Source: a virus
DNA: 24,442 bases
Reading direction: 5' to 3' (one strand)
UHGV virus genome: UHGV-1686243
The position numbers and the translations under genes are program-made. Shown in pieces: positions 7,465 through 23,569 of this stretch (the stretch's first letter is position 1; each line of letters begins with the position of its first letter). The notes beneath the pieces are model-generated. The model was given only the letters and a program-made list of their open reading frames with translations. It ran no database searches and had not been told where the DNA came from.

Positions 7465-9147
7465 ATGGCAACGAAAGACAAAAACAAAGGCTTTCTGTCA
7501 GCATTGAAGAAAGCCTTCAACGGTGGTGATGTTACGCCCGCCGATCCGGTCGTTTTTACGAGCGGACATAGTGTCGTTGCTCGTTCCGGCCTGTCTGCTT
7601 TACGTCCAGGCATCCTGGGGAGCAATAGCGATGGCATGACGAGTGAAGCAGATTCAATTTCTTTATCCGCTGAACTGCCCGGCGAGCGCCTGCAAAAGTA
7701 CAACATCCTGGAAACGATGGCTAAAAGCCCGACTATCTCGACGGCTTTAAATATTCACATTGCACATGCGCTTGCGCCTTCAAAAAAAACCGGACAAGCA
7801 TTCATCCTTTCGCCAAAGGATGGTTCCGATGCCGAGGCAGTAAGTAGATGTGAAGAGTTAACCGCTGATTTGGGGGCGATGATTAATGACGGACTTCCTT
7901 CATGGGCCATGATTATGGCGATCTTTGGGGTGTCTTATGTCCGACCTTATGCTGAACAGGGCAGGGGGATAACAGGCATTGAGTCCAGTTATTACACTCT
8001 GCCACACTTCGTCCAGGAGTTTTATCGTGGTAGCCAGCTGGTAGGTTTCAGTGGTGATTACATTCTGGATACGCATAGTTTGCGCAGAGTAATAACCGAA
8101 CCGTGGAATCTGGTTTCCATGAAAAATCCCTATTGGACGCCACAGCATAAAGTTATTCCGGTTAGCTACGGCACAAAAGGGTACTCACTGTTAAGTGATC
8201 AGGCTGATAAGCCGTTAATGGAGACGCAGAATTACGGAACTTCATTCCTGGAATACAGCTATGAACCTTACCTTAATTTATGTGCTTCGCTCGCCGCGCT
8301 GAAATCAACGCGAAATAATGCAGCCAAAATTGACCGCCTGATTGCTCTTACGACGAACACACTGGACCCGGTTAATGCGGCGAACTATACGCGTGGCGTC
8401 AGCCAGGCATTGAAGCGTCATAGTGACCTGGTGGCGCAAAGGTCGATTAATGCCAACGCTATTCCGACTGTGCTTAACCATCTGATACCTGTTATGGGAG
8501 ACGGGAAGAACGGCATCACCATTGATACGCAATCCATACCCGCAGATATCAGTGGTATTGAAGACGTTATGTTTCACCTCCGGCAGCTTGCTGCAAGCCT
8601 CGGCATTGACGCAACAATGCTTGGCTGGGCTGATCAGATGAGCGGAGGGCTTGGAGAAGGCGGCTGGCAGCAAACTGCTATCCAGGCTGCATTGCGTGCG
8701 AACTGGATCAGACAGGCCGCCCAGCGAACTATTTATCGGCTTCTGGACATTCACCTCGCTTATAAATACGGCAAGGTTTACACCGAAACAAACCGCCCTT
8801 ATGACGTGCAATTCAACTCAATGAACACTGCTATCCAGGAAGAGGAAAACCGAGAACTGGATGCACGCGCCAACTTTGTTGCTGTCATCTCCCAAATTAT
8901 GGACCAGATCCAGAACAACCCGAAACTGGCTGGTAGCGACGCGTTTATGCGTTATCTGTTCACTGAGCAGTTGCACATCGACGATGACACTCTCAACACC
9001 ATGATCAAAGAGTTTAAGGCGAATGAATCAGAGCAAAACAACGAGCATGGTATGTACGAATCCGCGCCGTTGTCGTCCGGTGACGATCCGGAAAACTGGA
9101 CGCCAGAACAGTTAATAAACTTTGCAAAATTTGTGATGAGCAATTAA
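7465..9147 (+). CDS. portal-like head protein (putative)
   Basis: The 560-aa protein has no Walker A motif, so it is not a large terminase. Its size and its position directly before a coiled-coil protease/scaffold-like gene suggest a portal. The call is weak. Confidence 0.3.
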   Translation: MATKDKNKGFLSALKKAFNGGDVTPADPVVFTSGHSVVARSGLSALRPGILGSNSDGMTSEADSISLSAELPGERLQKYNILETMAKSPTISTALNIHIAHALAPSKKTGQAFILSPKDGSDAEAVSRCEELTADLGAMINDGLPSWAMIMAIFGVSYVRPYAEQGRGITGIESSYYTLPHFVQEFYRGSQLVGFSGDYILDTHSLRRVITEPWNLVSMKNPYWTPQHKVIPVSYGTKGYSLLSDQADKPLMETQNYGTSFLEYSYEPYLNLCASLAALKSTRNNAAKIDRLIALTTNTLDPVNAANYTRGVSQALKRHSDLVAQRSINANAIPTVLNHLIPVMGDGKNGITIDTQSIPADISGIEDVMFHLRQLAASLGIDATMLGWADQMSGGLGEGGWQQTAIQAALRANWIRQAAQRTIYRLLDIHLAYKYGKVYTETNRPYDVQFNSMNTAIQEEENRELDARANFVAVISQIMDQIQNNPKLAGSDAFMRYLFTEQLHIDDDTLNTMIKEFKANESEQNNEHGMYESAPLSSGDDPENWTPEQLINFAKFVMSN

Positions 9148-9160
9148 CCGGAGGGAAATA

Positions 9161-10159
9161 ATGCAATCACTGAATACTGTTACGGATCGCTTCTCCCTGG
9201 TAGAGAAAATCCGCAAACACACACCGCAGAACAACCGAAATTACGTCATTCAGTCGGTACGAGACACATTCAACTCGCCAGAAACAAAAGAGCGTATCGC
9301 GCTGGGTGAGATGTATGGTTATTACGGTCATGGTCGCCGGGCGATGCACTATAACAAAACGAAAAGCCTGAACTTGCCGGAAGTCTCTGTTGTGATGGTA
9401 GATGGGAAGCCTGTTGTATTGGAGAACGTGCCGTCAAACAGGACTATCGACATTTCGATTGACGACAACGGCATTGTTACTCATACGCAGGAAATACTGG
9501 ATACAGACACCGGGCGTATTGTTCAGGGCATGATTAATTCTGGTGCTGGTGGTTGGTCGTGGGCTACATCTGGTCCAGATTCATCGGTATCCCTGGTAAA
9601 GTCTTTCCACGGCTTTGATTACGTAACTGTGCCTAACTATATCAGCCTCGACAAGAAAAGCCTGATGCTTGAATCAGCAGAAGAGCGCGATGCGGCTATT
9701 CATGCAGCACTTATCGAACAAGGTTTTACCGATAACGCTGCTACGGATCTGGTTCACCACTTTTCAGCAATGAAAAATCAGCAAGCCATGCTCGAATCTG
9801 CACATCGTGAAGCCCTGGAATCAGAATTGATGCTCCTTGAAGTGGAAAACATACAGCTTCGAGATAAGCTGCGCGCTCAAACAGCGATGATGGAAAGCCA
9901 GGGGGAAAATGCAAAGCAATGCCGCCGGATTTTGCGTGAAGCTATCCAGGAAATGCCTGTTTTTATCAGCGCAGAACAGCGCCGGGCGCTCTGCCGTATG
10001 CAGTCTGAAGATGATGCCCGCATAGTGGCTGCGATGCTTGAATCTCTTGGGGCAAATGCTACTTATGGCTTACCGGTATCAGGCAAGAAAGAACCAGAGT
10101 TATCACCGAAGGAGAACAAAAACACTACCCCGTTACTCTTCGTTTCCAGAAGGGGGTAA
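9161..10159 (+). CDS. head morphogenesis protein (putative prohead protease/scaffold with C-terminal coiled coil)
   Basis: RBS GGAGGG is 5 nt before ATG 9161, 13 nt after the portal-like gene. The C-terminal ~120 aa are heptad-like and Ala/Glu/Leu/Gln-rich. No catalytic residues could be assigned by eye. Confidence 0.3.
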   Translation: MQSLNTVTDRFSLVEKIRKHTPQNNRNYVIQSVRDTFNSPETKERIALGEMYGYYGHGRRAMHYNKTKSLNLPEVSVVMVDGKPVVLENVPSNRTIDISIDDNGIVTHTQEILDTDTGRIVQGMINSGAGGWSWATSGPDSSVSLVKSFHGFDYVTVPNYISLDKKSLMLESAEERDAAIHAALIEQGFTDNAATDLVHHFSAMKNQQAMLESAHREALESELMLLEVENIQLRDKLRAQTAMMESQGENAKQCRRILREAIQEMPVFISAEQRRALCRMQSEDDARIVAAMLESLGANATYGLPVSGKKEPELSPKENKNTTPLLFVSRRG

Positions 10160-10177
10160 TCGCCTTGTTAAGTTAAA

Positions 10178-10187
10178 TTTCTAACAT
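10178..10187 (-). promoter_or_regulatory. GTTAGAAA motif copy (minus-strand orientation), adjacent to 7-bp inverted repeat AGTGTAT/ATACACT
   Basis: Plus-strand TTTCTAACAT is the reverse complement of ATGTTAGAAA. It lies in the intergenic region after the protease/scaffold-like gene. Confidence 0.3.
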
Positions 10188-10270
10188 AGTGTATTTATAT
10201 ACACTGTTGATCCTGGTGGATGGGATCGAGTAGGATCGCGGTCACTGCTCCGGTAGCGACTGCCAAAAAA

Positions 10271-10297
10271 GCAAAAGCCGCTGAGAAGCGGCTTTTT
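10271..10297 (+). terminator. intrinsic terminator (bidirectional-looking)
   Basis: GC-rich stem AAAGCCGCT-gaga-AGCGGCTTT is followed by a T5 run and preceded by an A-run. Confidence 0.6.
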
Positions 10298-10300
10298 GGG

Positions 10301-10330
10301 TGTATAAATCCACTGCCATAGATTTATACG
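10301..10330 (+). promoter_or_regulatory. operator-like perfect inverted repeat GTATAAATC-N10-GATTTATAC upstream of the HTH gene
   Basis: 9-bp arms are perfectly complementary, 30 bp before GTG 10360. Related half-sites (GTATTTATA / TATACACT) occur at 10190-10200. Confidence 0.35.
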
Positions 10331-10359
10331 GTAGATAGATTTTTTCACGGAACTATCTG

Positions 10360-11322
10360 GTGAGTATTTTAAATTCAGTTTCAGTAACTTTCAACACTTC
10401 TGAGTATAAAAACAACACTGAATACCACAAAAAAATCAAAGGTCATCAGTTGAGTTTTTTTGCTCGTCATAGCGGTCTTCTTTCCCCTTCACATAGCGCC
10501 ATTATTGCCGAGTTCGCCAACCTGGCAGGGTCTACCGATGAATACATGATCCGTCGCTCATATGCTGATATGTCCGAGATTACAGGACGCAGTATTTCTA
10601 CTGTGCGCCGGGCATTTGCTGAAGCGACGAAGTGCGGAATGCTTGTTAAGCAACATCAGGTAGCGAATAACAATGCCCAGGTGTGTAACGTATATCGGTT
10701 TACGACACAATTTCTCCACTTCATTCATGTAGCAATGGAGATAGGGGGTAAGCAGGGCATCAAATTTGCCAACGCCACAAAACTGGTTAAGCAGTTGATT
10801 TCAAAGGTTCGTTATTTTTTTGAAACTGGGACCCCCCTGTTCAAATTGAACAAGTCCCCCCATGTTCAAAATGAACAGCCAATAGAAAATAAGAGTCACT
10901 CTATAGCCAAAAGAAGAGAAAGATCATGCGCGGTTCAGCCAAAGGCTTCACCAGCAGATAGTTCTCAAACGGATAACGTGGTACTGGATAAAAAACCAGT
11001 AACCAGGGAAGAACATACCAACCACTGCCTGGCGGCGGCAAAAGCGAGAGCTGCAAAGCGTCGTTCAGACGAGGGGCACGCAAAACGGCAGGCTCTGTAT
11101 CGTACCGCTGAAAAGCTGGCAAAAAAATTTGCATGGATACGTAGTGCCGCTACCGCAGTGAATAAGCCTAAACAATCCAGTGCCTTGGATTTCTCAATGG
11201 ATTATTCTGGCTCCCAGGGGTGTGCAACCATTGGTGAAGCCTTTGACCTGATGAAACAGCGTGGCTATCGGTCTGAATTTGACCGTGAGGATTGGTCAAT
11301 CCCGGCTGGCTTTAGGGGATGA
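10360..11322 (+). CDS. winged-helix DNA-binding protein, possible replication initiator (RepL-like?) or early regulator
   Basis: GTG start with weak RBS; the start is uncertain. HTH-like segment ADMSEITGRSISTVRRAFAEATKCGMLVK; basic C-terminal half. Internal palindromic repeats are listed in the findings. Confidence 0.4.
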   Translation: MSILNSVSVTFNTSEYKNNTEYHKKIKGHQLSFFARHSGLLSPSHSAIIAEFANLAGSTDEYMIRRSYADMSEITGRSISTVRRAFAEATKCGMLVKQHQVANNNAQVCNVYRFTTQFLHFIHVAMEIGGKQGIKFANATKLVKQLISKVRYFFETGTPLFKLNKSPHVQNEQPIENKSHSIAKRRERSCAVQPKASPADSSQTDNVVLDKKPVTREEHTNHCLAAAKARAAKRRSDEGHAKRQALYRTAEKLAKKFAWIRSAATAVNKPKQSSALDFSMDYSGSQGCATIGEAFDLMKQRGYRSEFDREDWSIPAGFRG

Positions 11323-11375
11323 CCTGTGCGTCTACAAAACATCCCAATGATCGGAAAATGCTCTCTCAATAATTT

Positions 11376-11386
11376 GTGTTAGAAAA
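11376..11386 (+). promoter_or_regulatory. GTGTTAGAAAA motif copy, preceded by ATGCTCTCTCAATAATTT
   Basis: Exact motif in the intergenic leader upstream of the small ORF / antirepressor operon, followed by TTAATTT. Confidence 0.35.
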
Positions 11387-11736
11387 TTAATTTGCTGTTT
11401 CTAAATCGGAATGTATGATCTGCATCATCGACTGAAATCATCCATTGCTGAAATTTTTAGTTGATCTTCCATGTTTTCAGGCTTATATTCATGTCGTCGT
11501 AGCAAATTCTGCGACCGGGTTTAGCAGCCTGAATACGAATGCGGACAACCGCAGATATCCGATATTGCGGTATTTTTGTGTCCGTAAAACCACGTTACGC
11601 CCGAATTATGGTGGGGCGTGATGGGGAGGCTTCGGCCTGCTGGTTTCATTCGTGCCAGTCTGCTAACCCCGTCACGTCCTGCCACCCGTTTAGCAGCGGG
11701 GCGCAGGTTGTTAAACCTACGAATGAGGCCGTAACT

Positions 11737-11961
11737 ATGGTTAATGCCAATCCTTGCTCGCGCCCGGAATTTATCTGGCGTTTCCACTCCCTGCAAAAAC
11801 ACTGCGATCACTTCGCAATTGCCGCAACTGAAAAAGAAGCCCGTTCTCTGATCCCTGATCAACATGGCGTCCTGACTGGCCGTTTCTCTACTTCATCACA
11901 ACCAAACACTAATCCTTGGTATCGCAATATTACCCATCCCGGAATTGCGGAGGCACACTGA
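11737..11961 (+). CDS. 74-aa protein translationally coupled to the antirepressor gene (Icd-like position)
   Basis: RBS GAGG is 8 nt before ATG 11737. The stop overlaps the Rha-gene start (TGATG). The longer 140-aa frame upstream has no RBS and runs through the hairpin-rich leader. Confidence 0.35.
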   Translation: MVNANPCSRPEFIWRFHSLQKHCDHFAIAATEKEARSLIPDQHGVLTGRFSTSSQPNTNPWYRNITHPGIAEAH

Positions 11962-12668
11962 TGGATATCTGCATTCTTGAAAAGCCATCAATGACCAGCA
12001 TTGAGATCGCGGAGCTGGTGGGAAGTCGTCCAGATAACGTAAAAATATCAATAGAGCGCCTGGCTAAATCTGGAGTTATTCAACTTCCTGCATTGCAGGT
12101 TTTCGAAAAAATCAATAACTTAGGACTACGCCGTAGTGTCGAGGCTTACGTCTTCGAAGGCGAGCAAGGCAAACGAGACAGCATTATTGTCGTTGCGCAG
12201 CTCTCTCCGGAATTCACCGCCCGGCTGGTGGACCGCTGGCGCGAACTGGAAGAACAAGTACGCCAGCCGTTGACCGAAATAGAGATGATCGCCGCAATGG
12301 CTGCAAATGCAGTTCAGCAGCAAAAGCGGCTTCATGCTGTTGAGTCAAAGGTTAGCCAGGTCGCTGAAACCGTCGAGCAAATCAAGAAGGGCAACATGCC
12401 AGATGGCTACATTGGCTACCGCCAGCTGGCTGCGAAATGTGGCCTGACTGAAGCCAAATGCCGCAACCTGGTTAACGCTTTCCGGATTCCCACCGATACG
12501 CATGAGTTTTTAACTCCAGAGGGGGTATTGTCGCGTCGTTCCATCGTGGCCTTATCTCCCTTCATGAATGCTTTTAACCGGATGATGTCGGAGGCAGAAC
12601 ACCGAGGAAAACGCTGGTATCACCCCAAAATGGGGCAATTCCAGGTGATCGGTTGGGGAGGTGAGTGA
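11961..12668 (+). CDS. Rha-family phage regulatory protein (candidate antirepressor)
   Basis: GGAGG is 8 nt before ATG 11961. The N-terminus ...MTSIEIAELVGSRPDNVKISIERLAKSG... matches the Rha signature as recalled (TS..IAE.fGkRHDNVlrdIr.L). Confidence 0.65.
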   Translation: MDICILEKPSMTSIEIAELVGSRPDNVKISIERLAKSGVIQLPALQVFEKINNLGLRRSVEAYVFEGEQGKRDSIIVVAQLSPEFTARLVDRWRELEEQVRQPLTEIEMIAAMAANAVQQQKRLHAVESKVSQVAETVEQIKKGNMPDGYIGYRQLAAKCGLTEAKCRNLVNAFRIPTDTHEFLTPEGVLSRRSIVALSPFMNAFNRMMSEAEHRGKRWYHPKMGQFQVIGWGGE

Positions 12669-12865
12669 TGGACATCATGCAGGCGGTAAAAAAAATCAGG
12701 GAAGGACAGGCTGAAGTGTGCCGCCGTAAAGCATGGAGTATTGATGTATGGGCATGGCCTGATAATTACTCTACTACCGGATGGTTTTGTATTAATGGAC
12801 TCAAGATCCGGGAAGTTTATTTATCGACGGCTGATATAGTCGGTAATGATTGGATCGTGACTTGA
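12668..12865 (+). CDS. DUF2829-like small protein (candidate Tad2-type anti-Thoeris sponge)
   Basis: ATG overlaps the upstream stop, with RBS GGGGAGG. The 65-aa protein has N-terminal ...AVKKIREGQAEVCRRKAW... and C-terminal ...DIVGNDWIVT, which fit the recalled DUF2829 pattern (G..v.RkgW ... DWe.). A paralog-like ORF lies at 21751. Confidence 0.4.
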   Translation: MDIMQAVKKIREGQAEVCRRKAWSIDVWAWPDNYSTTGWFCINGLKIREVYLSTADIVGNDWIVT

Positions 12866-12873
12866 AGCGTGAT

Positions 12874-12898
12874 GCCCCGGCCTGGCCGGGGCTTTTTT
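12874..12898 (+). terminator. intrinsic terminator ending the antirepressor operon
   Basis: GCCCCGG-cctgg-CCGGGGC followed by TTTTTT. It abuts the stop of the convergent minus-strand gene. Confidence 0.65.
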
Positions 12899-13534: not shown

Positions 13535-16500
13535 TTGGACAAACTACTTCATTCAATCAGTGAAGCCTCCAGCTTAGGCGAACTGATTGAAATTGTTAGT
13601 CGGTTGCATAAATTACGTGCTGTTGCGACCTTTGGCGTCAGGAAAGCCGATGGCGTCAGTATTCAGAAAACACGCCGGGCAGCAAACAATGCCGCAGTAA
13701 ATCTTCTTAATTCCCTTCCGCCCGGCTTCGATGGGGCGAAATTAACTGACAAACAACGTCAGATTCTTGCTGGGTATACCGGTGAAGGCGGCCTGACAGA
13801 TGGTGAGGGCAGCCAATACGAATACTACACGCCACAGTTTATGGCTGAAGGTATATGGGATCTGTTTGCTGACTACGGTATTGATGGCGGGCACGTACTG
13901 GAACCATCAGCGGGCACAGGTATTTTCCAGGAGACAAAACGGCAGGGCATGATAATGACCAGCGCCGAACTGTCTCCGATTTCCGGTCGAATAAACCAGC
14001 TTTTGCACCCGGAAGACGATGTGAATATCGGGGCGTTTGAGGCGCTGGCAGCGAAAGACGCAATGTATGATCACGCTGTTGGTAACGTACCGTTTGGTGA
14101 AGGGCGTTCCGGTGTCGCCGGGCTTGATCCGGCATATGCAAACGAGAAGAACGTTGGCAATTACTTTGTGCTGCGCACGATCGACAAGGTTAAGCCTGGT
14201 GGGCTTATCGTATTGGTGGTGCCAAATGGCATGACCGATGGTACGAAATATAAAAAATTGCGCGATAAAGTCAGCCGTAAAGCGGAATTTTTGGGCGCAC
14301 ATCGTATGCCTTCCGGTACGTTCAGCGAATCCGGTACAGATACCGTGGTGGACGTATGGGTATTGCGTAAACACCCGGAAACCTTCCTGGAGATGATCCC
14401 CGACACGGATGATTCAACACTCAAATCGGCAAACGTCCTTTGGGATACCTTCCTCAAAGGAAAATGGTTTACAACCGAAGGGAAGCGATTTGTTTACGGC
14501 GACATGGAACGTACCAGCTTCCGCAATACCCTGGTGGTGAAAAAAGACGGTCGTGTATCCAATGAGTCGATGAAAACCGCGCTATCTCGTCGCTTTGATA
14601 GTCGCATCAATTGGGATTTGCTCGGCGTAACTACTCAGGCATGGCAGGGCGCGAAAGTGGGCGATAAACGCCTTGTAGGCGGTATCTGGCATGAGTTTGA
14701 TGGTCTGAAATGGGTTAAGGACACGACAACCAAATCCTCCGCGCTTGATGTAAGTCGATATGGTGTTTCGACGTTTGGCGATCTGCAGATCGCGTTTCAG
14801 TCAACAAATGGCATTCTGGCTTTGTCATGGGACCAGATATCGGCGATCGCGTCTGACTATCCATCGGTTGTCAGTGATGAAGTGGCAGCAATGATTCGCT
14901 TTGCTGGCAAGCAGCGAGAAAAAGACAGGGAGCGCGTTATGCGCGGTGCACTGATAGGTCAGTTGATCAACAAGGCACTTGATTTGCGTAACCTGGGGGT
15001 GAACGTTGATGACAAACTGGCAGATGCATCCCGCCTGGCGGCAGCAGAAGTTGCGAAGTATGGACCACCGCACGCGATTAAGCTGAATGGGCTTGCTGAA
15101 GCTGGCGCTAAAAACTGGATGACGTTCACTGGCAATGTGAAACAGGATGGTTCCACTTCTGACCTTCTGGCAGGGCGACTTGATGTAACGGATGGTGCTG
15201 CCGGTATTGACTTTACGCGTCCTGAACAAGTGATAGCACATCTTTTTAGTGATGTAGCCCTTAATCCTATAACGCTGGGCGACTTTCGTGAGGCGTTTGC
15301 TGGTGAACTGCCAGAGGACGACGACGCGGCCCTTGAATACCTGGCGAAATTTGATGATATCGCTATTGATGGGTATGGCTGTCTGCTGCCGATGGACCGC
15401 GCCACCAGCGGCGATGTTGCAACCAAAACAGCACTGCTGGTGGGCTGGCGTGATGCGTCAACAGGTGAGCAGAAAGCGAACTTTGAGCGTCAGTTGGCGA
15501 AAATCGAAGAGAAACGTATTTTCACGCCACTAAATAAAGTCACCGTTAATCTGAATGCCCGCTGGCTGGATCGCCGCTTGATAAAAGAGTTCCTGGCAGA
15601 GCAGGGCTATGACGAGTTTAAGTACACTGAACCTGATCTGAAGGTCGTCGATGGCATTCTGGTATCTCCGGACGATTACGAAGGTAAGGACGGTGTATTT
15701 ACCGGCTATCAGCTACGAACCGTAAACGGCAAAAACGGGAATGAGTTCAAGAAGGCCAACAATAAAGACGGCTTCCTGAACCAGTTAGAAAACTACCTGA
15801 ACGGTGTTAAACCGCGTGGGCAGAACGCTAACGAGTACCTGGATAAAATTGCTCAACTGGAAGTTAGCTTTAACGACTGGTTACGCACCCACCCGCAGGC
15901 GGATCAGATAGCCCGTGACTATAACGACGCATTCAATGGTTTCATTCCGTTCACACATTCTGACGCACCGCTAGGCCTGGAAGGGATTAGTGGAAAGCGC
16001 ATTCCTCTGACTTATCAGAATGAAGAAGTTCGCCGCTTGTCAGAAGATGGGCGTGGCATCATGGGATTTGGTACCGGGCTGGGTAAAACCACGACCGCGC
16101 TTGCGCTTGAGGCGTATAACTTCGAAACAGGTCGCACTAAACGCACGTGTATTGTTGTTCCGAAGGCGGTTTATCAGAACTGGTATCACGAGGCACAGAG
16201 TTTCTACAGTGCTGATGCCTTCGCCAATATGATGTTTATCGGTTTGGATGAAGTTCGTGATGACGGCGGAAATATTCTTACCGCGCCAGTGCTTGATGAA
16301 AATGGCGAACCACGCCTCGACAGTAACGGGCAGCCTCTTACCAGAAATGTTGTGAAAGAGTCCGCCAGCGCCGTTATCGTTCAGCGCATGAACATGATCC
16401 CGTCGTCAAATTGGCGAACGGTCATCATGACAAAAGAACAATTCGCGTCTATCCCGCTACGAGAAAAAACCATCGAGGAGAACTCACAGCAAGCTGTCTT

Positions 16501-19500
16501 TAATGCTGTGGAAATGGGGCGTCTTGACCTGGCGTCCGGTAAACACCGTGATGCGCAGAAGAAGAACAAGATTAAGGATCAGGCCGCGAATACCGGTACA
16601 ACGAAGAAGCAGAATATCCCGTACTTTGAGGATATGAACTTCGATAGCGTGATTGCCGACGAGGGGCATAACTACCGCAACTCCTTTAATGCCGGGCGTG
16701 AAGCGGGACAACTGGCATATTTGCCTAACCCGGCAGTATCCAAGATGGCCCGCGACATGGCTGTAAAAGCTGCGTACATGATGAAACGCAACAACGGGCG
16801 TGGTGTAGTCATGCTGACGGCAACTCCGCTGGTGAACAGTCCGATTGATGCCTTCAACATGCTGTCTACTGTCATTCCGCAGGAAGAGTGGATGCGCATG
16901 GGCATCATTACGCCTGATGATTTCGTTCGTGTGTTTGGCAAAACAGCCACAGTTCAGGTCCAGAAAATTTCCGGGGAAGTGGAAGAGAAGCAGGGGCTGG
17001 TGGGCTTCCAGAACCTTGACGGCCTGCGTGGTATTTTCCATCGTTGGACCACTCTGAAGACTGCTGCAGATGTCGGAGCGACGGTTAAAATTCCAGACAT
17101 CATCGAGAACACCTTGCAGATCCCGATGACAGGGGAGCAGGAGACTGCTTATGAAGAGCTTCGTAAGCGTGCTCAGGAGTTAAGTCGCAATGATGAGCTG
17201 ACAGTCGATGAAAACGGGCATATCACTAACGACAAACCGGATGATTTCATCTTCTCCATCATCCGCGACATGGACAAGGTTGCTATAGACCCGGATCTGT
17301 ATGCCAGTGCGATTACATTCCAGTTCCCCGTTGAGCTTGCAGACCAGGTAAAAGCTATTGCTGATGCCTTGCCAAAAGTAGCTGGCGGTAAAGTGGCAGA
17401 TGATGTTGATGAGGCCGAGGAAGACGGCGCTGGCGGGCTGGTCAGTACGCGTACCAGCAAGGTAGTGAAGACCGCTTTTAGTGAACATCCGACGCATGTT
17501 GAAATACGTGCCAGCATTGAACTGGAAGCTGAAATACTGAAGGCCATTGCGGCTGCCGGTATTGATATGCAGCAGGTATCGCACCCCATCCCGCCGAAGT
17601 ATGCCGCGCTGATCGAAAATCTTCGTGAAGGTCTGAAGAACGGTAAGCAGATCGTCTTTATTGATGAAAAAGCCCAGCACCAGAAGCTGCGCCGTATTAT
17701 CGCCAGTGCACTGCAAATGCCGGAGCAGGAGATTGGCATTATCAATGCGACGACAGTTAGCCAGGCTGGCGGCATCAAGCTGAAGAAGGTGAATAAGCCG
17801 ACCGAACCTACTCCAAACAAAAACGGTGAATACAAAGAAGGGGCATGGGAAACCTACTACAGCAAACTTGCACAATATGAGGATTATCTCTCAGCTAAAA
17901 ATGATGCTGGCCTTGAGGGCATGGAAGGTATTGCCGCCGACTATAACGAAGGTCGCACGCGCATCATAATCTGTAACAAGAAGGCTGAAGTAGGTATTAA
18001 CCTGCACATCGGGACAACCGATATCCATCACCTGACACTACCCTGGACACCAGCCAGTATCGACCAACGAAATGGGCGCGGTGCGCGCGTAGGTTCACCG
18101 CAAGAAAAGGTCAATGTTCACTACTATTGTGGCAAAGGCACATTCGACGACTTCCGTCTGGATACGCTGAAACGTAAGAAAGACTGGATCAAGATGGTGA
18201 TGACATCCGACATGTCAGAGATCGCCAATGGTGATGCGGATGATGCTGATGAACGCGCCATTATGCTGGCGGCAAACCCGGAAGAACGCCGCGCAATCAT
18301 GGCTCGCCAGGCGCAAGAGCGTGAAGAACGTCTGAAACTGAAAGCACAGCGCGAGGCCAACAATGCTCTCGATATCTACCTGAAAGCGGCAAACGCCGCC
18401 GGAAAAGATATCGGCATGATGGAGACAGAACTGAAAAGCGCGATGGAACAGATAGAGCATTACCAGCGCAATCTTGACGACCTGATAAAAGCGGGTACGA
18501 ACAGGAATGGGCAAAAATACGCGCTTGAGCAGTTGAGTAGCTACAGAAAACGTGCGCGGGTGCTGAAGTTTGCGATCACCAGGGCAAAAGACGCGGATAC
18601 CATAATGAAACGCTCTCGTGGTGATGTGGAGCGCGCTATTAAGTCTGGTGTGCTGGATATCAGTATCGATGTTATTCAGAACCCACAGGAATATATGCGC
18701 ACTGACAAGAATATCCTGTTGCATAAAGGTAGTTATTACCGTGCAGTCATTGATGATCGCGAAACAACAGCGATTGTCCGGGTGGAAAAAATTGACGGTG
18801 AAAAAGCACAATACCTCTGCCGTATCGCCTGGCTGGATAGAGCAAGTCGTTACGCTCGAGCACCGGGGTCAATCGTTACATTGCCGTTTGACTCTGTGAT
18901 TGAAGCGGTAACTTTTGAAGAGGGGGTTGCTGAATCGCGCGCAACGGCTGCGCGTGGTGTTCAGTGCCACCAGCTATCAACAATACTTACTCGCGATCAG
19001 TTCTATGATGCTATTCGCAATGGGGTAATGAATGTTATTGCTGGTAAACCTGGTAATGCATGGGGCGGTGGGTCAGCTATTAAATACTGGGCATATCGCA
19101 CAGATGATGGTCAGATCGCGCTGTCATCGGCCTATGATGGCGTGATAGGCCAAAAAATCGGGCGAGCATCGGATATAGCACCTGAGCGATGGATATATCC
19201 TGATGGCAACGACGAGGCGCTGAAGCGTGAAGTGGCAAAAATACAAGCCAGTGATAACCCGCTGAATATCGTGGACGGCGAGGGATTCCTCCAGGCATTG
19301 TATGGGTATGATTACACCCAGGGAATGCAGGCATGGGGCGCACAGGCAACGATGGATGATGTTGCCCAGGAGTTCGAAAACTGGATGGCTGGGCGTGGTC
19401 TGTCAGGTCGTTCGCTTAATAAAGTCACTTCTGAAGATATTCTTAGCTTGTTCCGCAAACCGTCCGGAGAAGGTCTGGAATCATTCTGGAGGACCGTGCT

Positions 19501-20371
19501 GGCATACCGTTTATTCCAGGGCAGGATGAAAGCCTTTAGCAATATCGATGATATTGAACGGATGTTTAATCAGGTCAAGATCGCGAAAATTAAGGCGAAG
19601 ATCGAAAAAACACGTTCTGCGCTGGTGGCCTGGCGCGATGCATTGTTTGAGCAATATAAATCACTCAGTGATGCAGATGGATGGGCGGCATTGGAACAGC
19701 TGGCGAATAATGGGGTAGATGGAGCGAAACTCGCCATTGTTCAGGCTGATAACCCCCTGGAATCACCGGCAGCACAGTGGATTAAGGTGGGGGCTGTCAT
19801 CAATGCATTTGATGAAAAACACATTAGTAAGGACGATTTTGCTGATGCTGTTTCTGTTAATCGCCTGGTAGAAATGGCTACCCGCCGCGCACGTGAGTTG
19901 AAAGACGGCGACTATGTGAATGAGTTGCCGGATACGCTCAAATCGGCAACGTGGCAGGACTATGTATCGCTGAAAAACGGCGGGGCCACTGAATCAGAGA
20001 TCGCGGAAAGGCTTGAGCAGGCTGAAAGCAAAAGAGAAGAGCAGGCGGCAGTGGCTGAAGCCAGAGCTGATGAAGCGGCGAATGATGACTATATCATTGT
20101 GGTTAATGATAAGCCGATTCGCGCTAAGGCGCGTGTTCGCGGGCGCTGGTGGAGCGTCAGCGAGGACGTTGGCGCGGTTTATCTCATTGCCGACCAACCA
20201 GGTTCCTCGACAATACGGAACGCCAAAGACGCGATTAAGAAGATTGGCGGGCGTTTCTGGAATTTTGAAGCAAACCCGGTTGCTGATGTGAACTTTGACC
20301 GTCCTGCATGGATGGTATCTACGCGTTACTCGGTAGATGAACTGCGTAAAATAATCGCCGATGCGGCCTAA
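13535..20371 (+). CDS. darB: DarB-like giant anti-restriction protein: N6-adenine methyltransferase fused to an SF2 (DExH/SNF2-like) helicase
   Basis: TTG start 7 nt after a strong AGGGGG RBS. 2,278 aa. MTase motif I VLEPSAGTGIF and motif IV-like GNVPFGE; helicase motifs GFGTGLGKTTTALAL (I), VIADEGHNYRN (II), VMLTATPLVNS (III), IDQRNGRGARVG (VI). Size and architecture match recalled P1 DarB (about 2,255 aa). The gene symbol is assigned by architecture and synteny, not by alignment. Confidence 0.7.
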   Translation: MDKLLHSISEASSLGELIEIVSRLHKLRAVATFGVRKADGVSIQKTRRAANNAAVNLLNSLPPGFDGAKLTDKQRQILAGYTGEGGLTDGEGSQYEYYTPQFMAEGIWDLFADYGIDGGHVLEPSAGTGIFQETKRQGMIMTSAELSPISGRINQLLHPEDDVNIGAFEALAAKDAMYDHAVGNVPFGEGRSGVAGLDPAYANEKNVGNYFVLRTIDKVKPGGLIVLVVPNGMTDGTKYKKLRDKVSRKAEFLGAHRMPSGTFSESGTDTVVDVWVLRKHPETFLEMIPDTDDSTLKSANVLWDTFLKGKWFTTEGKRFVYGDMERTSFRNTLVVKKDGRVSNESMKTALSRRFDSRINWDLLGVTTQAWQGAKVGDKRLVGGIWHEFDGLKWVKDTTTKSSALDVSRYGVSTFGDLQIAFQSTNGILALSWDQISAIASDYPSVVSDEVAAMIRFAGKQREKDRERVMRGALIGQLINKALDLRNLGVNVDDKLADASRLAAAEVAKYGPPHAIKLNGLAEAGAKNWMTFTGNVKQDGSTSDLLAGRLDVTDGAAGIDFTRPEQVIAHLFSDVALNPITLGDFREAFAGELPEDDDAALEYLAKFDDIAIDGYGCLLPMDRATSGDVATKTALLVGWRDASTGEQKANFERQLAKIEEKRIFTPLNKVTVNLNARWLDRRLIKEFLAEQGYDEFKYTEPDLKVVDGILVSPDDYEGKDGVFTGYQLRTVNGKNGNEFKKANNKDGFLNQLENYLNGVKPRGQNANEYLDKIAQLEVSFNDWLRTHPQADQIARDYNDAFNGFIPFTHSDAPLGLEGISGKRIPLTYQNEEVRRLSEDGRGIMGFGTGLGKTTTALALEAYNFETGRTKRTCIVVPKAVYQNWYHEAQSFYSADAFANMMFIGLDEVRDDGGNILTAPVLDENGEPRLDSNGQPLTRNVVKESASAVIVQRMNMIPSSNWRTVIMTKEQFASIPLREKTIEENSQQAVFNAVEMGRLDLASGKHRDAQKKNKIKDQAANTGTTKKQNIPYFEDMNFDSVIADEGHNYRNSFNAGREAGQLAYLPNPAVSKMARDMAVKAAYMMKRNNGRGVVMLTATPLVNSPIDAFNMLSTVIPQEEWMRMGIITPDDFVRVFGKTATVQVQKISGEVEEKQGLVGFQNLDGLRGIFHRWTTLKTAADVGATVKIPDIIENTLQIPMTGEQETAYEELRKRAQELSRNDELTVDENGHITNDKPDDFIFSIIRDMDKVAIDPDLYASAITFQFPVELADQVKAIADALPKVAGGKVADDVDEAEEDGAGGLVSTRTSKVVKTAFSEHPTHVEIRASIELEAEILKAIAAAGIDMQQVSHPIPPKYAALIENLREGLKNGKQIVFIDEKAQHQKLRRIIASALQMPEQEIGIINATTVSQAGGIKLKKVNKPTEPTPNKNGEYKEGAWETYYSKLAQYEDYLSAKNDAGLEGMEGIAADYNEGRTRIIICNKKAEVGINLHIGTTDIHHLTLPWTPASIDQRNGRGARVGSPQEKVNVHYYCGKGTFDDFRLDTLKRKKDWIKMVMTSDMSEIANGDADDADERAIMLAANPEERRAIMARQAQEREERLKLKAQREANNALDIYLKAANAAGKDIGMMETELKSAMEQIEHYQRNLDDLIKAGTNRNGQKYALEQLSSYRKRARVLKFAITRAKDADTIMKRSRGDVERAIKSGVLDISIDVIQNPQEYMRTDKNILLHKGSYYRAVIDDRETTAIVRVEKIDGEKAQYLCRIAWLDRASRYARAPGSIVTLPFDSVIEAVTFEEGVAESRATAARGVQCHQLSTILTRDQFYDAIRNGVMNVIAGKPGNAWGGGSAIKYWAYRTDDGQIALSSAYDGVIGQKIGRASDIAPERWIYPDGNDEALKREVAKIQASDNPLNIVDGEGFLQALYGYDYTQGMQAWGAQATMDDVAQEFENWMAGRGLSGRSLNKVTSEDILSLFRKPSGEGLESFWRTVLAYRLFQGRMKAFSNIDDIERMFNQVKIAKIKAKIEKTRSALVAWRDALFEQYKSLSDADGWAALEQLANNGVDGAKLAIVQADNPLESPAAQWIKVGAVINAFDEKHISKDDFADAVSVNRLVEMATRRARELKDGDYVNELPDTLKSATWQDYVSLKNGGATESEIAERLEQAESKREEQAAVAEARADEAANDDYIIVVNDKPIRAKARVRGRWWSVSEDVGAVYLIADQPGSSTIRNAKDAIKKIGGRFWNFEANPVADVNFDRPAWMVSTRYSVDELRKIIADAA

Positions 20372-20407: not shown

Positions 20408-20842
20408 ATGACGACATTAATTGACACTGTAAAACCGACGGAATCCTACCTTGAGGACATTTTGCCGCAGGCGCTCAATGGCAGGAGTGAAGAGGCGTTT
20501 CTGGATGCATATCTGAATGGCATGGTGGAAAGGCTGAAACGAGATCCACAGCTTTATCACCTTTATGGGCCGTGGTGGCCTGCGCTTAAAACGTTATTGC
20601 TGGAGCGCGGCGACATATCATTTGGACAAGTTGTAGATAGTGATGTGGCAGAGATCTACAAAATGAGTCGCCCGGCGCTTACGGTTTTGGCTGGGCATCT
20701 GTATTCGAGCGATCGCCTGGAAAATGACGCGGTATACAATCCTGTTCATGCTCTGGAAGTCGCACCTTATGCCGATGATACAGAGCCATACGTGTACACA
20801 AGTTACGACGAGTCTATAGAGAAATATCGAATTATGGGGTAG
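20408..20842 (+). CDS. hypothetical protein (144 aa)
   Basis: ATG start. A GGCCCC-aact-GGGGCC hairpin sits between the darB stop and this start. No recognisable motif. Confidence 0.5.
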   Translation: MTTLIDTVKPTESYLEDILPQALNGRSEEAFLDAYLNGMVERLKRDPQLYHLYGPWWPALKTLLLERGDISFGQVVDSDVAEIYKMSRPALTVLAGHLYSSDRLENDAVYNPVHALEVAPYADDTEPYVYTSYDESIEKYRIMG

Positions 20843-20844
20843 CC

Positions 20845-21105
20845 ATGCGAAAGAATCGTAGGTTTACGGTCGAAGACCTAAAGGAATATTCCATATCGAA
20901 GGGGTATATCCTTGAGTTCCACCGATACAAGAAGGTTTTTACGCTGCGAAAAGCAGAAAACCCTGCGAACTGGAGCTGGATATACTTTCCTCACACCGAT
21001 GATAAGTTGGTAGAACTTGTTGATGATTTAACCTATGAAGGTTGGTTGATCGCAATCGACAAGACAATCAAAGAATTATCCGAACAGGATAAAATAACCC
21101 TTTAA
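20845..21105 (+). CDS. hypothetical protein (86 aa), AT-rich coding sequence
   Basis: ATG is 2 nt after the upstream stop, with a GGGG RBS. Composition is visibly more AT-rich than the flanking genes. Confidence 0.45.
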   Translation: MRKNRRFTVEDLKEYSISKGYILEFHRYKKVFTLRKAENPANWSWIYFPHTDDKLVELVDDLTYEGWLIAIDKTIKELSEQDKITL

Positions 21106-21241
21106 AAATAACAGGTTGGGTAAATGCCATGCGATTTACCCTCCTTGTTGATTAAGGTCACTCTTTACTCTAAAAGCAAATCCGACCTGTTGCATATAGA
21201 CCATCCTTGAGTAGTATCTCTCTTGTTTTACAAATCTAACG

Positions 21242-21736
21242 TTGTTGTTATTATTTCGCATATTTACTATCAATGGGTGTGTTAGAAAAATAGCGCGAAA
21301 GAGAAGGCGTCGCAGTGAATATTCTGAAACATCCCCACATGCCGCAGCTCTTAGAGAACTGGAGAAAAACCCAGATCTAATCAAAAGGAACCATGAGCAT
21401 TACGAGCAGGTTCGCGTCCTGGACTGGATGTATCGCAATATGCGTTATGTGTATGAGCATACTCACGCCACTCCAAACGGTGGCCTGCGAGGCATAAGGA
21501 CGGCAATAAAAATGGTGGCAGAGGGCCAAAAGAAGGGATATCCCGATCTTTCTATAGACCTTGCTTGTGGGGGATACCACGGAATGCGCATTGAGATGAA
21601 ACATGGGAGAAATCGCCTGACTCCCGAACAACTCGTCTGGATGACTCGCCTCACAGAAGCCGGTTACTACTGCTTTGAGGCGCGCAGTGCCGCTGAAGCC
21701 ATAAAAGCTATCACGGAGTATGTTTGTCTTGATTAA
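21242..21736 (+). CDS. VRR-NUC domain nuclease (PD-(D/E)xK superfamily)
   Basis: C-terminal ~100 aa ...GYPDLSIDLACGGYHGMRIEMKHGRNRLTPEQLVWMTRLTEAGYYCFEARSAAEAIKAITEY fit the VRR-NUC signature. The start is uncertain: there is no in-frame ATG or GTG before the domain, only TTG 21242/21245, and a motif copy lies inside the predicted N-terminus. Confidence 0.55.
   Translation: MLLLFRIFTINGCVRKIARKRRRRSEYSETSPHAAALRELEKNPDLIKRNHEHYEQVRVLDWMYRNMRYVYEHTHATPNGGLRGIRTAIKMVAEGQKKGYPDLSIDLACGGYHGMRIEMKHGRNRLTPEQLVWMTRLTEAGYYCFEARSAAEAIKAITEYVCLD
21279..21289 (+). promoter_or_regulatory. GTGTTAGAAAA motif copy upstream of / within the 5' end of the VRR-NUC frame
   Basis: Exact motif match. Confidence 0.3.
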
Positions 21737-21750
21737 ACGGAGAAATCGTT

Positions 21751-21951
21751 TTGCGTTTACTTAACGTGGCAGAACTTATCCCTGCAGGAACTAATGCTAT
21801 CGCTCGTCGTCGCTCATGGCAGCAGGCACTATGTATTGAGATCTCGAAACGTATCAATGGAAGTTTTGAAGCTCGCAATATTGTTACTGGCGATAAGGTT
21901 CACATAACCCCGGAAAGTGCAAGCGCTGATGATTGGGAGTTTGTACATTGA
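21751..21951 (+). CDS. DUF2829-like small protein, second copy (candidate Tad2-type sponge)
   Basis: TTG start with GGAG 8 nt upstream. The 66-aa protein has N-terminal ...PAGTNAIARRRSWQ... and C-terminal ...SADDWEFVH, the same pattern as the ORF at 12668. Confidence 0.35.
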   Translation: MRLLNVAELIPAGTNAIARRRSWQQALCIEISKRINGSFEARNIVTGDKVHITPESASADDWEFVH

Positions 21952-22247
21952 GCAAAAAATATTATGTTAGTCTGGCGTTCGCTGACGATGCGGGGAGGAC
22001 GCGGAGTATCACGTTGAGCACACCGGTTAAGGCTGTGACAGCGCCGTTAATCCGTGAAGCTCTCAGAGAGCTGGAATTGGGGGAAAACTCGGCACTGTTG
22101 TCGGTTAGTTGGTTCGGGAAAATGTCAGAGAAACAATACGTGGATGGAGTTACCCCAATAACAGTAATGAGGCTACTTTCATTGCTGCAATGGGCCATCG
22201 TACCTGTATTTATCGCGTATCTTATTTATCAGGCTGCAACACAGTAA
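21933..22247 (+). CDS. small protein with C-terminal transmembrane anchor
   Basis: TTG start at 21933 or 21948. C-terminal hydrophobic segment VMRLLSLLQWAIVPVFIAYLIY. A strong terminator follows. Confidence 0.35.
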   Translation: MGVCTLSKKYYVSLAFADDAGRTRSITLSTPVKAVTAPLIREALRELELGENSALLSVSWFGKMSEKQYVDGVTPITVMRLLSLLQWAIVPVFIAYLIYQAATQ

Positions 22248-22253
22248 TTGCAT

Positions 22254-22282
22254 AAAAACCCGCCAATTAGCGGGTTTTTTGT
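22254..22282 (+). terminator. intrinsic terminator
   Basis: AACCCGC-caatta-GCGGGTT followed by TTTTTTGTTT, 7 nt after the stop codon. Confidence 0.75.
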
Positions 22283-22321
22283 TTATTGCATCTTCCGATA
22301 CCGTCATCAAACTAATAAAAT

Positions 22322-22332
22322 ATGTTAGAAAA
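22322..22332 (+). promoter_or_regulatory. ATGTTAGAAAA motif copy 28 nt upstream of the 407-aa gene start, preceded by CTAATAAAAT
   Basis: Exact core GTTAGAAAA followed by CTAATTT. Its position is consistent with a promoter or operator for the gene starting at 22361. Confidence 0.4.
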
Positions 22333-22360
22333 CTAATTTAACAAAGTGACGGGAACAGCA

Positions 22361-23569
22361 ATGAGTCAACACACTGATACTTCTAATCTGGAAATTATCT
22401 CGACAGCAATTGAAACGCTGCGCACACAAATCGCTCTTATACAGAAACGGAATCCGGGTGATGACCTGTCAAAGCGACTGCACGAGAGTGTCATTGCCAC
22501 TACAGATAACCTGGTGGCGGAAATCAACAAGCTGCTTGATGATGGGGCAGTTGATTACAATAAGCTGGTGGATCAGTTTGAGGAATACCAACAAGCCGTT
22601 AATGATGGCTTGATCCGTTTTTCACAAGTCACAGGCGTATCAGCGACAGTTGAAAGCCTGGGCGATGCAGTTAATCAATTTGCCGCGAATATGCGTAATG
22701 AGATCGGCAATCTGGAAGCGCGTCTTGAACAGGCAAATACACTGCGTAAATCTGCCGAAGCCGATTTGAACCGTTACAAAAAAGACTATCCGCCAAGCCT
22801 GACAAAGCGGCTGGATGTTGCGGAGAAGGATAACCGCACGCTGAAAAGAGAGCGCCGGGAACTAAAAGAGCGTTTAACCAAGCTCAATCAGCAATGCATT
22901 GATTATCAAGGCGAAGGCGTCACACTGCGTAAAAAGTTGGCTACAGCGCAGAGCATTATCGAAACATTAAAGCGAGAGTGTTCACAGCTTGGTCACGATC
23001 TGAACCGTGCTTGTGGCATGGGACAAAGACCAGAGACATTTCCACTTATGTATGATGGAAGGGATGCCATTGCCTACATCCATGAGTATCCGCACGGCCT
23101 GGTTGCGGAAACTGGGCAGCGTGGCGAAGCACTGCTGACGGCTAATTACCATCAACAAATCAGAACTAATCGCCTGTTAACGATGGATGTGATCCCATCG
23201 GTATGGGGAACGCCGCTTTACTATCGCCTGCCGGGCTTCGAAAAGGACTGGAATACCGACATAGACGAATGTCTCGCAGATAAAATTATGGCGTACCTGG
23301 AGACGGATTTTCCGCGCTTATATCGCCGGATTATGGACTCTAAGGATGCGCCAATCGATGAATTAAAAATGCGTCCGGAGACGCTGGAGGCAATCAAGCA
23401 GACGGAGTTTGATACTGTATTCAGTGTGGCCTGCATTCCAAGCTGTTTCCATGAAAGCATTCCGTTCATGCAAGGAGATCGTCGTCAGGAAATCATTGAC
23501 GCTTGCCGGGTATGGGCGAACGAATGGGATAAGAAGAATGGGGGTGTAGAAGATCTTTACGGGAAATAA
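22361..23569 (+). CDS. coiled-coil protein of unknown function (403 aa)
   Basis: ATG 22361 is preferred over the GTG 22346 used in the ORF track. N-terminal ~220 aa are heptad-rich; the C-terminal half has no recognisable motif. Confidence 0.55.
   Translation: MSQHTDTSNLEIISTAIETLRTQIALIQKRNPGDDLSKRLHESVIATTDNLVAEINKLLDDGAVDYNKLVDQFEEYQQAVNDGLIRFSQVTGVSATVESLGDAVNQFAANMRNEIGNLEARLEQANTLRKSAEADLNRYKKDYPPSLTKRLDVAEKDNRTLKRERRELKERLTKLNQQCIDYQGEGVTLRKKLATAQSIIETLKRECSQLGHDLNRACGMGQRPETFPLMYDGRDAIAYIHEYPHGLVAETGQRGEALLTANYHQQIRTNRLLTMDVIPSVWGTPLYYRLPGFEKDWNTDIDECLADKIMAYLETDFPRLYRRIMDSKDAPIDELKMRPETLEAIKQTEFDTVFSVACIPSCFHESIPFMQGDRRQEIIDACRVWANEWDKKNGGVEDLYGK

Follow-up and report, generated by a model that had tools for sequence, protein, structure and literature searches.

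The viral genome UHGV-1686243 contains a short open reading frame (ORF), at 21751..21951 on the + strand, whose 66-amino-acid product is probably a remote member of the DUF2829 superfamily. (Pfam's model for this family, PF11195, was formerly called DUF2829 and is now called "Tad2-like"; its gathering score is 25 bits.) The stretch of DNA that we analyzed is 24,442 nucleotides long, and we call it the window. Escherichia phage D6, which is a P1-like phage-plasmid, shares 99.5% identity with the window at 20800-23000, a region that includes the ORF. The ORF is orf11 of D6, and another small ORF, which begins at 12668, is orf17 of D6. An earlier note on this DNA, which was made from the sequence alone, had described both ORFs as DUF2829-like. 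Overall, orf11 seems to represent a divergent and minimal branch of the DUF2829/Tad2-like superfamily, and there are two such ORFs in the window. Few families of viral proteins are known to act as sponges for the immune signals of bacteria, and Tad2/DUF2829 is among them.

Profile comparisons suggest remote homology to DUF2829

We compared the alignment of the orf11 family to a diverse alignment of 25 DUF2829 sequences, which had been checked against Pfam, by using hhalign. The two matched end to end, across 62 columns (Prob = 92.3%, P = 5.5e-7, score = 36.3). When we shuffled the columns, none of 200 comparisons reached this score (mean 10.2, standard deviation 2.3, maximum 20.3), which corresponds to z = 11.5, and the reversed profile scored at the level of the null (9.3). 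A separately built alignment of 17 DUF2829 sequences gave a similar result for orf11 (Prob = 89.4%, P = 2e-6). The orf17 alignment also matched the 25-sequence profile (Prob = 79%, P = 1.6e-5, z = 8.4), and a merged profile for orf11 and orf17 matched it at Prob = 94.5%, P = 7.6e-8, and z = 15.3. With the 17-sequence alignment, orf17 reached just Prob = 21% and P = 0.001; the alignment for orf17 is very shallow (Neff of 1.1-1.2, versus 2.7 for the orf11 family). We also tried circular rotation of the query's columns as a null, and dropped it because it keeps long matching segments, with scores of 22-31.

To collect DUF2829 sequences, we used a consensus that scores 107 bits on PF11195 and matches the solved Tad2 chains 8SME, 8WJD, 8KBI, 8V3E, and 9EIB. 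It pulled out 80 loci from viral contigs and a spread of phage proteins (16 were retrieved). For the short phage proteins and the most divergent ones, we verified membership in PF11195 one by one, with scores of 35-82 bits.

The residues that are conserved in the orf11 family also fall in the right places: G13, R19, W23, A59, D61, and W62 align with the corresponding columns of DUF2829. Furthermore, PF11195 is the sole Pfam family that was matched by more than one member of the orf11 family. The best of these weak matches is for a family member, P0012, that aligns over its full length (positions 1-64 to positions 1-72 of 73, 13.1 bits, E = 0.15). Similarly, orf17 and its variant P0006 match PF11195 over their full length at 14.5 bits and at 16.5 bits (E = 0.012), respectively, which are below the threshold. 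A plain hidden Markov model (HMM) of verified DUF2829 proteins gave orf17 the best rank (E = 0.005) among all 284 ORFs of 40 amino acids or more in the six frames of the window.

We predicted the structure of orf11 with AlphaFold2, using the family's alignment. The model has a predicted local distance difference test (pLDDT) score of 83.6 and consists of a helix (residues 3-7), four strands (15-20, 27-33, 39-43, and 49-52), another helix (57-61), and a final strand (62-64). The model for orf17 has its elements in the same order (pLDDT = 79.8). A Tad2 protomer contains helix α1, antiparallel strands β1-β5, and a short helix before β5 (bioRxiv 10.1101/2023.05.01.538930). The predicted layout of orf11 matches this topology, minus the insertion between β2 and β3 that includes helix α2; in the model, only about 5-6 residues join the central strands.

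Several results weigh against the assignment. orf11 itself did not match any of Pfam's 24,736 models with E up to 10, and no member of its family reaches the gathering score for PF11195. In the search with the plain HMM, orf11 as a single sequence ranked 6th of the 284 ORFs, which is at the level of noise (E = 1.7). A narrower DUF2829 profile, from 55 near-identical metagenomic sequences, gave a weak signal (P = 0.005; 3 shuffles out of 150 attained its score); this is the profile that the diverse one replaced. Searches of Pfam, NCBIfam, and the sequences in the PDB, either with the single protein or with family profiles, gave no usable match. (We dismissed chance matches to the Fc-gamma receptor, the major histocompatibility complex, and LexA, with E of 0.02 or higher.) The structural model of orf11 did not retrieve any solved structure of Tad2. 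In BFVD, a 66-amino-acid "DUF2829 domain-containing protein" from Pectobacterium phage CBB (A0A1L2CVD1) ranked first, and that match is not significant (E = 0.015, template modeling score of 0.36). The structure searches may have failed because the Tad2 protomer has an open conformation that depends on the tetramer, or because the model was built from a shallow alignment and is imperfect.

These failures, along with the low diversity of both alignments, speak for another explanation, in which orf11 is an unrelated small β-barrel of the SH3 or Tudor type. Its motifs would then be convergent or due to chance, and the shallowness of the alignments would have inflated the scores from hhalign. We consider this improbable. 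The match to DUF2829 is colinear from end to end, and includes both termini as well as the central strands. It was reproduced with two independently built alignments, and nothing like it appeared in the 200 shuffles or with the reversed profile. Among all of the models in Pfam, PF11195 recurs as a weak match for several members of both families, and the matches to SH3-like proteins are weak and generic in their own right. Even the insignificant top match in BFVD is to a DUF2829 protein of identical length. Overall, we think it likely that orf11 is a remote homolog of DUF2829. The earlier note's label holds up in that the profile-profile comparisons link both ORFs, as diverged copies, to DUF2829; neither ORF reaches Pfam's gathering score.

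orf11 is almost certainly a genuine gene

The protein sequence of orf11 is MRLLNVAELIPAGTNAIARRRSWQQALCIEISKRINGSFEARNIVTGDKVHITPESASADDWEFVH. Between groups of orf11 sequences at 98% and 71% identity, the ratio of nonsynonymous to synonymous substitution rates (dN/dS) is 0.13-0.15, with dS above 1.2. In an alignment of 10 family members, some with as little as 32% identity, L3, G13, R19, W23, G47, A59, D61, and W62 never vary, and R20 hardly does. We conclude that orf11 is almost certainly a genuine gene that is under purifying selection.

The possibility that orf11 is a spurious or decaying ORF without a function deserves mention because it begins with TTG instead of ATG, it is very short, and no source annotates it beyond "hypothetical protein." This is extremely unlikely: dN/dS is around 0.14 at saturated synonymous sites, and both the frame and the length are maintained at 32% identity. 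Also, orf11 has a Shine-Dalgarno sequence (GGAG at 21739-21742, + strand, read from the sequence, 8 nucleotides before the TTG), its stop codon overlaps the start of the next gene, and it is carried by 119 plasmids in PLSDB and in 98 of 5,426 complete genomes of E. coli. The pattern of conservation effectively refutes this explanation. As the earlier note stated, orf11 has a good ribosome binding site and follows a VRR-NUC gene, whose TAA stop codon ends at 21736, which leaves a gap of 14 nucleotides.

orf17 is related to orf11

orf17 (12668..12865, + strand) begins with ATG and encodes 65 amino acids. (With an alternative GTG start at 12665, it would be 66 amino acids.) The earlier note pointed out that orf11 and orf17 have similar signatures at both ends, namely ARRRSW and DDWEFV in orf11, and CRRKAW and NDWIVT in orf17 (as part of EVCRRKAW...GNDWIVT). 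We defined the motifs RR[RK][SA]W and [DN]DW.[FV][VT] post hoc and counted them among the 284 ORFs. Each motif occurs in these two ORFs and nowhere else, while just 0.054 and 0.015 occurrences were expected, so the similarity of the ends is above chance.

By BLASTP, the two proteins align over just the N-terminal 23 residues (E = 0.004). MAFFT aligned the two families without gaps, with G13, R19, (R20), W23, D61, and W62 in common. hhalign matched columns 1-63 of the orf11 family to columns 1-63 of orf17 (Prob = 83.9%, P = 7.7e-6, score = 30.2), and none of 150 column shuffles reached this score (mean 9.7, standard deviation 2.0, maximum 16.7). A second run of hhalign gave Prob = 79% and P = 1.6e-5. 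The two proteins also have the same length (to within a residue, depending on the start codon), the same spacing from the glycine to the tryptophan, and the same order of predicted secondary structures. On the other hand, they are just 12-25% identical and they lie in different operons. From these alignments, we conclude that orf11 and orf17 are related, as the earlier note had proposed.

orf17 is under weaker constraint (dN/dS of 0.26-1.1), and it is found only in the D6 group proper. For example, the divergent contigs L151 and L153 lack orf17 between repL and darB and yet retain orf11. The start codon of orf17 overlaps the stop codon of an Ant/Roi-like gene (TGATG), with GGAGG 6 nucleotides upstream, and a GC-rich hairpin and a run of T lie 3' of orf17, at about 12873-12898. 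Therefore, the icd-ant operon ends with orf17. In phage P1, this operon is the immI region, and it is expressed upon infection or induction. We also noticed that orf17 weakly matches PHROG 63, "anti-repressor Ant," at its extreme C terminus (E = 0.056, positions 383-430 of 431), a hint that a DUF2829-like module might form the end of some Ant proteins.

D6 encodes a canonical DUF2829 protein as well

Another protein from D6, orf6 (191 amino acids, at 18226-18801 of contig L001 and outside of the window), has a canonical PF11195 domain at its C terminus (39.1 bits), even though it is annotated as "hypothetical." Divergent relatives of D6 also encode PF11195 proteins (L151 18384-18914, L152 13449-14024, and L153 13932-14546). 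The orf6-type proteins from D6 and its relatives are 176-204 amino acids long. The motifs ARRTSW and ATDWEAF of orf6 resemble ARRRSW and ADDWEFV of orf11, and BLASTP aligns the two proteins over 46 residues (E = 0.001). Unlike orf11, orf6 has two domains and a long insertion, and it scores above Pfam's threshold. Given orf6, orf11, and orf17, D6-like phage-plasmids carry up to three DUF2829-type genes. We considered whether the two small ORFs might be recent duplications from orf6; this is not supported, as the hhalign matches are local and cover just 12-16 columns.

Known ligand-binding residues are mostly absent

The DUF2829 proteins that have been characterized are all signal sponges: they sequester 1''-3' or 1''-2' glycocyclic ADP-ribose (gcADPR) in a pocket between the protomers of a homotetramer (bioRxiv 10.1101/2023.05.01.538930; PMC10680739). 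Tad2 proteins with a long insertion between β2 and β5 bind the cyclic dinucleotides (CDNs) cGG and cGAMP as well (PMC10680739). In Tad2 (Thoeris anti-defense 2) from phage SPO1, W25, N26, W73, T78, and D79 contact gcADPR, and helix α2 forms the dimer interface (bioRxiv 10.1101/2023.05.01.538930). In HgmTad2, the contacts are W21/N22 and S90/T92/D93 (PMC10680739).

Tad2 from SPO1 (gp34.65; PDB 8SME and 8WJE) is, like orf11, a small phage protein with the same predicted order of elements. Both have an N-terminal helix followed by G...R..W, and both have a C-terminal helix and strand with A-x-D-W. Also, the DUF2829 set that orf11 matches over its full length contains the Goe10 ortholog of SPO1 Tad2. 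The differences are that SPO1 Tad2 has 89 amino acids, while orf11 has 66 and lacks the β2-β3 insertion with α2; that orf11 has two extra residues between the glycine and the tryptophan; and that orf11 is below Pfam's threshold and its model does not retrieve SPO1 Tad2. HgmTad2 (also known as AcrIIA7; PDB 8KBI-8KBM), which is a sponge for both gcADPR and CDNs, has the same core motifs of the superfamily as orf11. Its long β2-β5 insertion, which forms the pocket for cGG and cGAMP, is entirely absent from orf11. Of the S-Q-T-D motif of HgmTad2, orf11 retains only a conservative replacement of serine by threonine (T53), and the aspartate is replaced by S56.

By length, the closest likenesses are short proteins that do belong to PF11195, from Bacillus phages BMBtp1 (gp3) and CP-51 (gp79, 70 amino acids), Enterococcus phages TJE4 and vipetofem, and Pectobacterium phage CBB (A0A1L2CVD1, 66 amino acids). 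These have nearly the same length as orf11 and lack the long insertion. The proteins from TJE4 and vipetofem even have the same two-residue insertion between the glycine and the tryptophan as orf11 and orf17 do. In contrast to orf11, which has no match in Pfam, the short proteins score 35-49 bits, and they retain the tryptophan of the "vPW" motif (equivalent to W73 of SPO1 Tad2). orf11 lacks this conserved tryptophan of the DUF2829 family. We know of no functional characterization of these short phage proteins.

When we transferred the contact residues of SPO1 Tad2 to orf11, via the hhalign alignment, they corresponded to W23, Q24 (which is variable), H51 (also variable), E55, and S56. In other words, one of the five contacts, the tryptophan, is conserved in orf11. 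orf17 retains the tryptophan along with the serine and the aspartate of the S-Q-T-D motif. From the alignments, the conserved residues of orf11 look like a structural scaffold rather than the known ligand-binding site.

Possible functions of orf11

The explanation that we prefer is that orf11 is a minimal DUF2829 protein that acts as a signal-binding sponge. orf11 would be the 66-amino-acid core of Tad2: an N-terminal helix, a strand with G...RR..W, three short strands, and a short helix and a final strand with A-x-D-W. Its protomers would associate as a small homo-oligomer, and pockets at the interfaces would sequester a small molecule from the host, as in the characterized Tad2 proteins. The ligand would most plausibly be an immune signal that is derived from nucleotides. 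Because the contact residues are not conserved, orf11 would bind something other than gcADPR, the ligand of SPO1 Tad2: judging from the sequence, if orf11 is a sponge, then its ligand is probably not gcADPR. orf11 would be co-transcribed with its neighbors, the VRR-NUC nuclease gene and the pmgR-like gene, and probably translationally coupled to them; darB and ulx, which are antirestriction genes, are at the start of this block. The phage would then have several such binders: orf11, orf17 (expressed with icd and ant), and the canonical orf6. The earlier note suggested that the two diverged copies could act on different signaling molecules or defense systems, which is a conjecture.

As a whole, this explanation is tentative and has somewhat less than an even chance of being right. 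That orf11 has a sponge-type role in anti-defense is possible, and we would lean against it if we had to choose; we infer it from the precedent within the family, from its rapid evolution, and from its position beside darB and ulx. Within the block from darB to pmgS, orf11 is the fastest-evolving gene. When we compared 20408-23569 to the divergent contigs L131, L132, and L151-L153, orf11 was 32-50% identical, versus 68-76% for DarB, 61-72% for Ulx, 69-74% for PmgM, 46-55% for PmgS, and 39-57% for PmgR. Such fast evolution is typical of genes that interact with the host.

Some of the evidence goes against a sponge. Besides the loss of four of the five contacts for gcADPR, both orf11 and orf17 lack the CDN-binding insertion that is found in HgmTad2 and the α2 helix for dimerization. 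Without these, the oligomer and the pockets of orf11 may not form. And the fixed gene order, along with the close coupling of orf11 to pmgM and pmgR, would be just as compatible with a role in that module instead of in anti-defense. orf11 might have the DUF2829 fold and be a dedicated partner of its neighbors, with the scaffold reused as a protein-binding module. For example, it could regulate, inhibit, or act as an adaptor for the PmgM nuclease, or it could have a virion-associated or morphogenetic function along with PmgR and PmgS. In every relative, orf11 is strictly adjacent to pmgM and pmgR, often with 4-nucleotide overlaps with both neighbors, and with gaps of at most about 45 nucleotides. 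The three genes seem to form a single transcription unit that ends in a terminator at 22254-22279. The lack of conservation of the ligand contacts would also make sense if orf11 binds a protein. Elsewhere, DUF2829 is fused to other domains, as in gp49 of phage N4, D6 orf6, and 162-amino-acid proteins from contigs L007 and L009, and orf17 weakly matches the end of Ant-type proteins (phrog_63). Also, in P1-type phages such as RCS47, the same slot holds pmgN, pmgO, pmgP, pphA, and pmgQ, which include "putative morphogenetic" genes.

Nevertheless, we know of no member of the DUF2829 family that has this kind of role, nor did we find one in the papers that we consulted. orf11 evolves much faster than PmgM, which would be unusual for an obligate partner, and P1/RCS47 has PmgM and PmgR without a detectable homolog of orf11. 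A role as a partner of the module is on the unlikely side, though it deserves to be considered alongside the sponge. A more detailed scenario, which we think is rather unlikely to be correct in full, draws on both: the D6-like phages would have a canonical orf6 and two minimal forms (65-66 amino acids), unrecognized by any database, that have lost the pockets for gcADPR and CDNs and were retuned to a different target, either an immune signal that is yet to be assigned or a protein, with orf11 as a fixed and fast-evolving partner of the VRR-NUC module beside darB and ulx.

In any case, a widespread lineage of phage-plasmids from E. coli, Salmonella, and Shigella seems to encode two minimal DUF2829-like proteins that lack the known ligand contacts. 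If these are functional binders, they would be the fold in its smallest form and would point to new ligand specificities. If not, then the scaffold would have been reused for another purpose. Every depositor labels both proteins as unknown: wherever a public source names them, D6 included, they are "hypothetical." In PHROGs, they are in two separate families of unknown function, and NCBIfam has no family for either of them.

The IMG/VR contigs L007 and L009 encode a canonical DUF2829 domain behind an N-terminal domain of about 90 amino acids. Thus, the DUF2829 module is used in multi-domain contexts.

Gene neighborhood and distribution

The gene order of D6, when mapped to the window, is icd, ant (11916..12668), orf17, and a CHAP-type lysin on the minus strand, followed by darB (13535..20371), ulx (20408..20842), orf13 (20845..21105), a pmgM-like gene (21242..21736), orf11, a pmgR-like gene (21948..22247), and a pmgS-like gene (22346..23569). 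darB and ulx are named as antirestriction genes in the annotation of D6. The earlier note correctly placed orf11 downstream of darB. It also placed orf11 in an "accessory block," which is doubtful, as the block is syntenically conserved and orf11 is in a fixed slot and not in a variable region. Specifically, all five of the divergent contigs (L131, L132, and L151-L153) have darB-ulx-orf13-VRR_NUC-[orf11]-pmgR, and in four of the five, pmgS comes after pmgR. The slot between the VRR-NUC and pmgR-like genes is kept in relatives with as little as 32% identity for orf11.

Upstream of orf11, the PmgM-like protein (21242..21736, + strand) is identified as a VRR-NUC nuclease by PF08774 (27 bits, with a gathering score of 23.8) and by the annotation of D6. 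Downstream, the pmgR-like gene (21948..22247, + strand), which was mapped from the annotation of D6, begins with a TTG at 21948 that overlaps the TGA stop codon of orf11 (TTGA); it also has an alternative in-frame start at 21933. The pmgR-like gene overlaps or abuts orf11 in the relatives L132 and L151-L153 as well. A scan for a consensus identified a hairpin and T-run that resembles an intrinsic terminator and would close the pmgM-orf11-pmgR unit (22254..22279, + strand; a stem of 10 pairs, of which 5 are GC). The C terminus of the PmgR-like protein (22150-22244 in the window) is hydrophobic, LLSLLQWAIVPVFIAYLIY, and by eye, it resembles a membrane anchor.

We also noticed a near-consensus sigma-70-like promoter at 21227-21254 (TTTACA-16-TATTAT, with a TG), which overlaps the annotated TTG start codon of the pmgM-like gene at 21242. 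We did not rely on this promoter because of that overlap and because the scan found fewer sites in the actual sequence than in shuffled sequences. Given this overlap, and a weak hairpin 3' of orf13 (at 21118-21141), there is some doubt about where pmgM truly begins and about which promoter drives the pmgM-orf11-pmgR unit.

We found 26 copies of orf11 in viral contigs. In the 98 complete genomes of E. coli with the pmgM-orf11-pmgR segment, it is always on a plasmid. An exhaustive search of 1.8 billion representative sequences with HMMER found only 7 related clusters of proteins, all of 66-76 amino acids, and a word-indexed search likewise found no more than this narrow family. (We dismissed three other matches, to repeat proteins, as spurious.) Searching 50,697 phage records for orf11 with tblastn, with E up to 1, matched D6 alone. 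We also considered PmgN from P1/RCS47 (51 amino acids) as a potential homolog, and rejected it; by eye, it has no evident resemblance to orf11, and it was not among the matches from tblastn.

Two of the D6-like contigs have other genes that may be of interest. In L152, the CHAP lysin gene and darB are separated by an inserted MazE/PemK toxin-antitoxin pair (182-759). In L132, pmgS is followed by genes for a pentapeptide-repeat protein, the ATPase of an ATP-binding cassette (ABC) transporter, an unknown protein, and a YcaO-domain protein (9032-12201, minus strand), which is reminiscent of a cluster for production of, and immunity to, a microcin of the B17 type.
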